A stretch of 64,000 nucleotides of DNA, from NCBI RefSeq assembly GCF_044647545.1, contig NZ_CP172818.1. One strand, given 5' to 3'. The position numbers and the translations under genes are program-made. Source of the stretch: Escherichia coli. Lineage in GTDB: Bacteria; Pseudomonadota; Gammaproteobacteria; Enterobacterales; Enterobacteriaceae. Shown here one piece after another: positions 14,267 to 17,200 of this stretch (the stretch's first letter is position 1; each line of letters begins with the position of its first letter). Under the pieces are notes generated by a model. It was not told where the DNA came from, made no database searches, and saw nothing but the letters and a program-made list of their open reading frames with translations.

Positions 14267-17200
14267 ATGGACGTCAGTCGCAGACAATTTTTTAAAATCT
14301 GCGCGGGCGGTATGGCTGGAACAACAGTAGCGGCATTGGGCTTTGCCCCAAAGCAAGCACTGGCTCAGGCGCGAAACTACAAATTATTACGCGCTAAAGA
14401 GATCCGTAACACCTGCACATACTGTTCCGTAGGTTGCGGGCTATTGATGTATAGCCTGGGTGATGGCGCGAAAAACGCCAGAGAAGCGATTTATCACATT
14501 GAAGGTGACCCGGATCATCCGGTAAGCCGTGGTGCGCTGTGCCCGAAAGGGGCCGGTTTGCTGGATTACGTCAACAGCGAAAACCGTCTGCGCTACCCGG
14601 AATATCGTGCGCCAGGTTCTGATAAATGGCAGCGCATTAGCTGGGATGAAGCATTCTCCCGTATTGCGAAGCTGATGAAAGCTGACCGTGACGCTAACTT
14701 TATTGAAAAGAACGAGCAGGGCGTAACGGTAAACCGTTGGCTTTCTACCGGTATGCTGTGTGCCTCCGGTGCCAGCAACGAAACCGGGATGCTGACTCAA
14801 AAATTTGCCCGCTCCCTCGGGATGCTGGCGGTAGACAACCAGGCGCGCGTCTGACACGGACCAACGGTAGCAAGTCTTGCTCCAACATTTGGTCGCGGTG
14901 CGATGACCAACCACTGGGTGGATATCAAAAACGCTAACGTCGTAATGGTGATGGGTGGTAACGCTGCTGAAGCACATCCCGTCGGTTTCCGCTGGGCGAT
15001 GGAAGCGAAAAACAACAACGATGCAACCTTGATCGTTGTCGATCCCCGTTTTACGCGTACCGCTTCTGTGGCGGATATTTACGCACCTATTCGTTCCGGT
15101 ACGGACATTACGTTCCTGTCTGGCGTTTTGCGCTACCTGATCGAAAACAACAAAATCAACGCCGAATACGTTAAGCATTACACCAACGCCAGCCTGCTGG
15201 TGCGTGATGATTTTGCTTTCGAAGATGGCCTGTTCAGCGGTTATGACGCTGAAAAACGCCAGTACGATAAATCGTCCTGGAACTATCAGTTCGATGAAAA
15301 CGGCTATGCGAAACGCGATGAAACACTGACTCATCCGCGCTGTGTGTGGAACTTGCTGAAAGCGCACGTTTCCCGCTACACGCCGGACGTAGTAGAAAAC
15401 ATCTGCGGTACGCCAAAAGCCGACTTCCTGAAAGTGTGTGAAGTGCTGGCCTCCACCAGCGCACCGGATCGCACAACCACCTTCCTGTACGCGCTGGGCT
15501 GGACGCAGCACACCGTGGGTGCGCAGAACATCCGTACTATGGCGATGATCCAGCTGCTGCTCGGTAACATGGGTATGGCCGGTGGCGGCGTGAACGCATT
15601 GCGTGGTCACTCCAACATTCAGGGCCTGACCGACTTAGGTCTGCTCTCAACCAGCCTGCCGGGTTATCTGACGCTGCCGTCAGAAAAACAGGTTGATTTG
15701 CAGTCGTATCTGGAAGCGAATACGCCGAAAGCGACGCTGGCTGATCAGGTGAACTACTGGAGCAACTATCCGAAGTTCTTCGTTAGCCTGATGAAATCTT
15801 TCTACGGCGATGCCGCGCAAAAAGAGAACAACTGGGGCTACGACTGGCTGCCGAAGTGGGACCAGACCTACGACGTCATAAAGTATTTCAACATGATGGA
15901 CGAAGGCAAAGTCACCGGTTATTTCTGCCAGGGCTTTAACCCGGTTGCGTCCTTCCCGGACAAAAACAAAGTGGTGAGCTGCCTGAGCAAGCTGAAGTAC
16001 ATGGTGGTAATCGATCCGCTGGTGACTGAAACTTCTACCTTCTGGCAGAACCACGGCGAGTCGAACGATGTCGATCCGGCGTCTATTCAGACTGAAGTAT
16101 TCCGTCTGCCTTCGACCTGCTTTGCTGAAGAAGATGGTTCTATCGCTAACTCCGGTCGCTGGTTGCAGTGGCACTGGAAAGGTCAGGACGCGCCGGGCGA
16201 AGCGCGTAACGACGGCGAAATTCTGGCGGGTATCTACCATCATCTGCGCGAGTTGTACCAGGCCGAAGGTGGTAAAGGCGTAGAACCGCTGATGAAGATG
16301 AGCTGGAACTACAAGCAGCCGCACGAACCGCAATCTGACGAAGTAGCTAAAGAGAACAACGGCTACGCGCTGGAAGATCTCTATGATGCCAATGGCGTGC
16401 TGATTGCGAAGAAAGGTCAGTTGCTGAGTAGCTTTGCGCATCTGCGTGATGACGGTACAACCGCATCGTCTTGCTGGATCTACACCGGTAGCTGGACAGA
16501 GCAGGGCAACCAGATGGCTAACCGCGATAACTCCGACCCATCTGGTCTGGGGAATACGCTGGGATGGGCCTGGGCGTGGCCGCTCAACCGTCGCGTACTC
16601 TACAACCGTGCTTCGGCGGATATCAACGGTAAACCGTGGGATCCGAAACGGATGCTGATCCAGTGGAACGGCAGCAAGTGGACGGGTAACGATATTCCGG
16701 ACTTCGGCAATGCCGCGCCAGGTACACCAACCGGACCGTTTATCATGCAGCCGGAAGGGATGGGACGCCTGTTTGCCATCAACAAAATGGCGGAAGGTCC
16801 GTTCCCGGAACACTACGAGCCAATCGAAACGCCGCTGGGCACTAACCCGCTGCATCCGAACGTGGTGTCTAACCCGGTCGTTCGTCTGTATGAACAAGAC
16901 GCGCTGCGGATGGGTAAAAAAGAGCAGTTCCCGTATGTGGGTACGACCTATCGTCTGACCGAGCACTTCCACACATGGACCAAGCACGCGTTGCTCAACG
17001 CAATTGCTCAGCCGGAACAGTTTGTGGAAATCAGCGAAACGCTGGCGGCGGCGAAAGGCATTAATAATGGCGATCGTGTCACTGTCTCAAGCAAGCGTGG
17101 CTTTATCCGCGCGGTGGCGGTGGTAACGCGCCGTCTGAAACCGCTGAATGTAAACGGTCAGCAGGTTGAAACGGTGGGTATTCCAATCCACTGGGGCTTT

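Follow-up and report, generated by a model that had tools for sequence, protein, structure and literature searches.

A TGA triplet between two open reading frames (ORFs) on the plus strand of an Escherichia coli contig raises the question of whether it ends one gene or is decoded as part of another. The window analysed here is a 64,000-nucleotide stretch of that contig. A mechanical list of its ORFs contains 14267..14854 (195 aa) and 14903..17314 (803 aa), both on the + strand, which taken at face value speaks for two genes. The original prediction held that the two ORFs are one gene, that the TGA is the selenocysteine (Sec) recoding site of formate dehydrogenase-N with a SECIS-like stem-loop 3' of it, and that an ORF caller would wrongly split the gene, as the list does. 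Our analysis leads to the same reading, at a probability of about 98%: TGA 14852-14854 is the Sec-196 codon of fdnG, and the ~45–55 nt of mRNA 3' of the TGA are the fdnG SECIS. This codon and its SECIS are a known textbook feature; fdnG is a member of the Rfam family SECIS_3 and is annotated accordingly in RefSeq. Selenium-containing, full-length FdnG of ~113 kDa has already been reported for E. coli. Textbook UGA recoding is thus reproduced, with no new biology.

The claim that the two ORFs share a frame and are parted only by the TGA is confirmed by arithmetic and by translation. Their starts differ by 14903-14267 = 636 = 3 x 212, and 14267-17314 translates into 1015 codons followed by a stop, with codon 196 as the sole internal stop, in the context NQARV*HGPTVASLAPTFGRGAM (NQARV*HGPTVASLAP). 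The product matches TIGR01553, the equivalog model for formate dehydrogenase-N alpha, with 1622.1 bits against a cutoff of 814.2 over residues 2-1014. With X at position 196, it aligns ungapped, 1-1015 to 1-1015, with PDB 1KQF chain A, which is the major subunit of nitrate-inducible formate dehydrogenase. The few substitutions relative to the 1KQF sequence lie away from the recoding site (e.g., D127/E, F342/L, A366/E and A666/S) and are ordinary strain variation. The segment 14267..17314 (+) is E. coli fdnG, which is read as one gene across the internal UGA and encodes the catalytic alpha subunit of formate dehydrogenase-N. Its translation opens with MDVSRRQFFK, in which the twin-arginine (Tat) signal motif S-R-R-Q-F-F-K occupies residues 4-10 (14276..14296, +); Tat export is established for FdnG. 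The operon order fdnG-fdnH-fdnI is present in the window: fdnH (17327..18211, +) encodes the iron-sulfur beta subunit (TIGR01582, 482 bits against a cutoff of 335; RefSeq annotation of an identical record) and fdnI (18204..18857, +) encodes the cytochrome b gamma subunit (NF007558, 487 bits against a cutoff of 339; RefSeq annotation). Many complete E. coli chromosomes match window positions 14000-17500 (3.5 kb) with 100% identity, and the fdnG region was found in 5425 of the 5426 complete genomes of the species. In RefSeq, the 100% identical records carry a single fdnG CDS that spans the TGA and whose coordinates correspond exactly to those in the window; fdnH and fdnI come after it, and the divergent yddG before it. 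The fdnG gene of E. coli K-12, with its SECIS_3 element, is the same gene with the same element, and its SECIS has no difference from that in the window.

The stem-loop 3' of the TGA is a true bacterial SECIS. Rfam SECIS_3 (RF01989) matches 14849..14907 (+), inside the coding sequence and with the UGA included, over model positions 1-59 of 59 (cmscan); the score of 84.3 bits against a gathering score of 63 is in part a measure of sequence identity, the family being defined by enterobacterial fdnG/fdoG-type sequences. The match has E = 7.8e-20 in a 3.5-kb scan and 1.4e-18 in a scan of the whole window, where it is the sole Rfam match at gathering level. Against SECIS_2 (RF01988) the element reaches only 28.8 bits, compared with a gathering score of 70. 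The fdoG gene of K-12 scores 84.3 bits on SECIS_3, equal to fdnG, and fdhF scores 87.1 bits on the sister model SECIS_2.

RNA folding of 14849-14900 (52 nt) and of a 44-nt span yields the two-part stem-loop that had been expected. Positions are numbered here with the U of UGA as 1. A lower stem joins a 5' arm (14854..14864, +) to a 3' arm (14889..14899, +) and is topped by an apical part; the stem includes the pairing of GACCAA (14859-14864) with UUGGUC (14889-14894). Both arms are taken from the minimum free energy (MFE) structure, with pair counts as a further basis for the 3' arm and weak cross-species support for the 5' arm. The lower-stem register of the Rfam model would place non-canonical A-G and A-C pairs in fdnG, and the MFE register fits the window better. 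Above it stands the apical minihelix, SECIS positions 15-32 (14866..14883, +), which is delimited by the folds, the Rfam structure, the fdhF register and covariation and is, by analogy, the probable SelB-binding part. At its base, G15-G16 (14866-14867) pair with C31-C32 (14882-14883). U17 (14868) is bulged between this base and the stem of positions 18-22 with 26-30, in which AGCAA (14869-14873) is paired to UUGCU (14877-14881). The apical loop consists of G23, U24 and C25 (GUC, 14874-14876), or of AGUCU if the closing A-U pair is open. Eleven nucleotides (14855-14865) separate the UGA from G15 (14866). Which base opens the hairpin varies with the structure considered: it is either the A of UGA (14854) or its 3' neighbour (14855). 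The original drawing of the stem-loop holds in part. The GACCAA/UUGGUC stem exists, as does the inner palindrome agcaag-t-cttgct (14869-14881), which is real as DNA; as RNA it does not close on the drawn 1-nt loop, which is impossible. Likewise, the span first proposed for the element, 14852-14895, has the TGA coordinates right and is too short at its 3' end, where the lower stem reaches 14899 and the Rfam model ends at 14907.

A minimal bacterial SECIS has been described as a 17-nt apical stem-loop located 11 nt from the UGA with conserved bases U17, G23 and U24, among which U17 and G23 are named as SelB-binding bases; the lower stem is reported to be largely or partly dispensable (PMC8659212). 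The fdnG element has the features of the E. coli type, namely an in-frame UGA with the element 3'-adjacent to it within the CDS, the minihelix at that spacing, a bulged U17, G23 and U24 in the loop, and covariation. The comparison with fdoG and fdhF that had been suggested as a check agrees with this: the fdoG element is identical in sequence, and in the fdhF element U17, G23 and U24 stand in the same register. The fdhF gene (formate dehydrogenase-H; RF01988, SECIS_2) provides the experimentally dissected prototype, and its product is a 715-residue cytoplasmic enzyme with Sec at codon 140. Both fdhF and fdnG have CAC GG after the UGA, a minihelix that starts with G15-G16 11 nt on, a bulged U17, and G23 and U24 in the loop. 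They differ in the sequences of their stems, in the lower stem and in the details of the apex: fdhF has C30-C31, a 4-nt loop GGUC (22-25) and a stem of 3–4 bp, whereas fdnG has C31-C32, a loop GUC (or AGUCU) and a 5-bp stem.

A hairpin of this kind could nevertheless be incidental to GC-rich, protein-constrained coding sequence, with the UGA decoded independently of it, and folding energy does not distinguish this possibility. The MFE is -14.6 kcal/mol for the 52-nt span (z = -1.08) and -11.9 kcal/mol for the 44-nt span (z = -1.65) relative to dinucleotide shuffles. When the same 16 codons are re-encoded synonymously, with codons drawn according to the window's own usage, the mean MFE is -14.9 kcal/mol against the native -14.6, and 53% of re-encodings fold as well or better. 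The energy of the fdnG hairpin is thus not separable from that of dinucleotide shuffles or synonymous re-encodings. RNA encoding this peptide, which is rich in Gly, Pro, Ala and Arg, folds about equally well whatever the codons, so hairpin stability is not diagnostic here. We therefore rejected folding energy as a SECIS criterion, given that these z scores and the 53rd percentile neither support nor refute the element; for the same reason, the lack of a stable hairpin, which the original prediction had named as refuting evidence, does not discriminate. Protein coding also accounts for part of the pairing: four of the seven apical pairs (16-31, 19-29, 20-28 and 22-26) involve first and second positions of codons in the conserved peptide and are thereby fixed, and a fifth (15-32) joins a second-position C to a third-position G. 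The specific architecture is another matter and goes far beyond chance, by the Rfam E values, by the covariation described below and by the re-encodings, of which just 0.55% have the apical helix together with U17, G23 and U24.

Sequence comparison across species bears on the same issue. One genome per species was scanned with the pattern GCNCGNGTNTGACAYGGNCC (A-R-V-UGA-H-G-P), which matched at least 120 loci. Among the matches listed, 86 distinct 60-mers comprise 70 of FdnG type, 10 of fdhF type and six chance matches to the pattern without FDH context (L005, L036, L041, L078, L095 and L107), which were left out of the alignment. The ungapped alignment combines the 70 FdnG-type sequences among the matches listed with the window, to give 71 sequences; the 10 fdhF-type sequences were omitted since their loop register differs. 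The exact 60-mer of the window recurs at no fewer than 17 loci, in Providencia, Photorhabdus, Yersinia, Citrobacter, Enterobacter, Klebsiella, Superficieibacter and E. albertii. Among the FdnG-type matches listed, the apical helix is 97.8% paired and four of its seven pairs have changed on both sides. Pair 21-27 (alignment columns 24-30) is AU in 42 sequences, CG in 23 and GC in three, and pair 18-30 (columns 21-33) is GC in 53, AU in nine and CG in four, again among the FdnG-type matches listed. Columns 21, 24, 30 and 33 are all third-codon positions, so these compensatory double changes are not explained by protein constraint. The covariation score is 0.222. Shuffles average 0.120, with none of 500 attaining 0.222, and sliding the 3' partners gives no more than 0.092; RNAalifold finds the same apical stem independently.

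Individual bases tell the same story as the pairs. U24 (column 27) falls at the third position of codons for Ser, Gly or Ala and is nevertheless invariant in 71 of 71 sequences; G15 (column 18) is likewise a third position, in a Thr codon, and is G in at least 90% of the alignment; U17 is invariant and G23 is conserved to at least 90% across the 71 sequences. In the homologous fdhF element, mutation of U17 or G23 abolishes readthrough (PMC8659212). The lower stem is 84.4% or 81.6% paired across species in two alternative, competing registers, with no convincing covariation in either register in this alignment; such weak conservation fits its reported partial dispensability (PMC8659212). An incidental hairpin, although the best-surviving of the alternatives, is therefore highly improbable. 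The preferred reading, a functional SECIS, is identified by register, conserved bases and covariation and not by thermodynamics, and the lesson for other SECIS elements in GC-rich coding sequence is that they are discerned by register, conserved bases and covariation at synonymous sites, not by hairpin stability.

The paralog fdoG (formate dehydrogenase-O, Sec-196) adds a further argument against an incidental hairpin. It lies at another chromosomal locus, where it adjoins fdhD, whereas fdnG adjoins yddG. Over their full length, fdnG of the window and fdoG of K-12 share 74.6% nucleotide and 76.8% amino-acid identity, and codons for the same degenerate amino acid are identical in 58% of cases. 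Against this background, the two genes share an uninterrupted 71-nt stretch of identity (14849-14919), their longest, which starts one codon 5' of the UGA and has the UGA at an equal codon number in both genes; the next longest is 35 nt. Nucleotide conservation, in both the 71-nt run and the 60-mer, which is unchanged across Enterobacterales genera, reaches well past the ~17-nt minihelix reported to be sufficient for SelB binding, and the two lower-stem registers seen across species exclude each other. The extended conservation may require no more than protein constraint combined with the known SECIS constraint. It is unlikely, if conceivable, that SECIS elements of the fdnG/fdoG type have an extra function, such as kinetic control of refolding between ribosomes or of RF2/SelB partitioning, or that fdnG and fdoG have been homogenized locally by gene conversion.

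An alternative that leaves no role for the hairpin is that the TGA is a genuine stop, which would make the locus two genes or a nonsense-split pseudogene. Beyond the split in the ORF list, the evidence speaks against it. Practically every E. coli genome keeps the TGA, as do 70 distinct homologues among the matches listed, which come from many phyla, and both halves are collinear with the single crystallised polypeptide 1KQF_A. The alignment to FdnG that had been proposed as a check puts the stop codon (14852..14854, +) at residue 196, where 1KQF_A has its non-standard residue X196. Mass spectrometry of purified E. coli Fdh-N, carried out for strain MC4100, detected selenocysteine at position 196 of mature FdnG and never cysteine, and without tRNA-Sec, in a selC mutant, translation of FdnG ends at UGA196 (PMC3636253). 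The decoding of UGA196 as Sec and its dependence on selC are taken here from this literature on E. coli FdnG. Together with the 1622-bit match to TIGR01553 and X196 of 1KQF_A, they bear out the predicted Sec recoding site of formate dehydrogenase-N. The second ORF, moreover, would begin merely at the internal Met213 of FdnG, without a start context of its own, and the 16 codons from the TGA to that ATG are conserved as protein, HGPTVASLAPTFGRGA. A genuine stop can thus be set aside almost entirely.

Low-level near-cognate UGA readthrough occurs in E. coli. That a near-cognate standard tRNA (Trp or Cys) or SECIS-independent suppression reads this UGA in place of Sec-tRNA(Sec) has a negligible chance of being correct, given that cysteine is never present at residue 196, that the selC mutant terminates at UGA196 (PMC3636253), that a complete canonical SECIS is present and that the selAB machinery is universal in the species. 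The genes selA, selB, selC and selD lie outside the window, so their presence in this strain is deduced from the species, in which selA-selB occur in 5425 of 5426 complete E. coli genomes. Nothing substantive stands against Sec-196 with its SECIS as the explanation of the locus.

The gene, its frame, the site of the UGA and the architecture, conservation and covariation of the SECIS are observed here. The mechanism is established for the E. coli fdhF SECIS and is carried to fdnG through homology of the element. The minihelix would display the bulged U17, together with G23 and U24 in its loop, at a constant spacing of 11 nt from the UGA. By homology with fdhF, the C-terminal domain of SelB, a specialised elongation factor, would bind the apical minihelix of the copy in the window, and SelB·GTP·Sec-tRNA(Sec) would thereby be tethered at the ribosomal A site when UGA196 arrives. 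Selenocysteine would then be inserted in competition with RF2-mediated termination, after which the ribosome would melt the hairpin and read it as HGPTVASLAPTFGRG. Sec-196 of FdnG is a ligand of the molybdenum in the bis-MGD cofactor. The expected product is full-length FdnG of 1015 residues with Sec-196 in this coordinating position, which would combine with FdnH and FdnI to form the nitrate-inducible respiratory formate dehydrogenase.

Annotation of the locus requires a single fdnG CDS that joins both ORFs and carries a transl_except for Sec at codon 196. Kept apart, the ORFs lead to a false call, of two fragments or of a pseudogene, for what is the catalytic subunit of a respiratory enzyme.

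The window also has structural peculiarities outside fdnG. Its collinearity with E. coli FDAARGOS_497 was assumed for annotation transfer and then disproved by comparison; the window is collinear with none of the complete E. coli genomes compared. Two segments near an LRR-protein gene are missing from it, as is most of the porin gene just upstream of yddG. In addition, ~10 kb from pqqL to ydeN are replaced by ~2 kb of poly-G tracts and low-complexity sequence, a stretch that looks like an assembly artefact. These differences leave fdnG unaffected, and the gene is 100% identical to that of the reference chromosomes.

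The fdnG gene and its K-12 paralog fdoG are perfectly identical over 71 nt around the selenocysteine codon (window 14849-14919), in paralogs that are 74.6% identical overall. This run continues for approximately 20 nt beyond the paired part of the SECIS hairpin, and the extra stretch of identity past the pairing contains only 5 degenerate codons. Additional constraint, gene conversion or chance could each account for it. At the K-12 locus retrieved for the fdhF comparison, which lies outside the window, four tandem matches to the Rfam family naRNA4 (RF02564) occur downstream of fdhF (positions 25-432 of that locus); these repeats are of the REP type and have no connection with the fdnG selenocysteine codon and SECIS finding.

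All the complete E. coli genomes that match best carry two segments, one of about 0.64 kb and one of about 1.54 kb, that are missing from the window at 12296-12621, where the junctions have overlaps of 11 nt and 9 nt that represent microhomology. Two minus-strand ORFs (11248-12582 and 12606-12896) are located at this site. The first deletion falls inside genes for leucine-rich-repeat proteins and leaves a single leucine-rich-repeat ORF of 444 aa, while the second removes most of a porin gene, which is ompC-like by annotation and adjoins yddG, and leaves a 96-aa N-terminal Porin_1 fragment as its remnant.

A further difference, at 48372-50828, is probably ordinary variation between strains. The reference strain has a fimbrial usher, chaperone and IS2 segment here that the window lacks, and the window carries about 1.6 kb that has no counterpart in the reference stretch. 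Within this extra segment, a 459-aa minus-strand ORF (49160-50539) has HipA N-terminal and C-terminal domains, i.e., it is a toxin-antitoxin kinase.

The interval 38990-41060 comprises about 2 kb of sequence unlike E. coli, with two long tracts of poly-G, roughly 39175-39223 and 39250-39363, and after them a low-complexity, A/T/G-rich stretch. The corresponding site in reference E. coli genomes holds about 10 kb, spanning pqqL-yddB-yddA-ydeM-ydeN, and the similarity to the ydeM region in fragments at 39659-40189 amounts to only 78-95% identity, with many gaps. The patch looks like an artefact of sequencing or assembly, collapsed and full of errors, rather than biology, and ORFs called within it (e.g., poly-Gly and poly-Pro) should be ignored.
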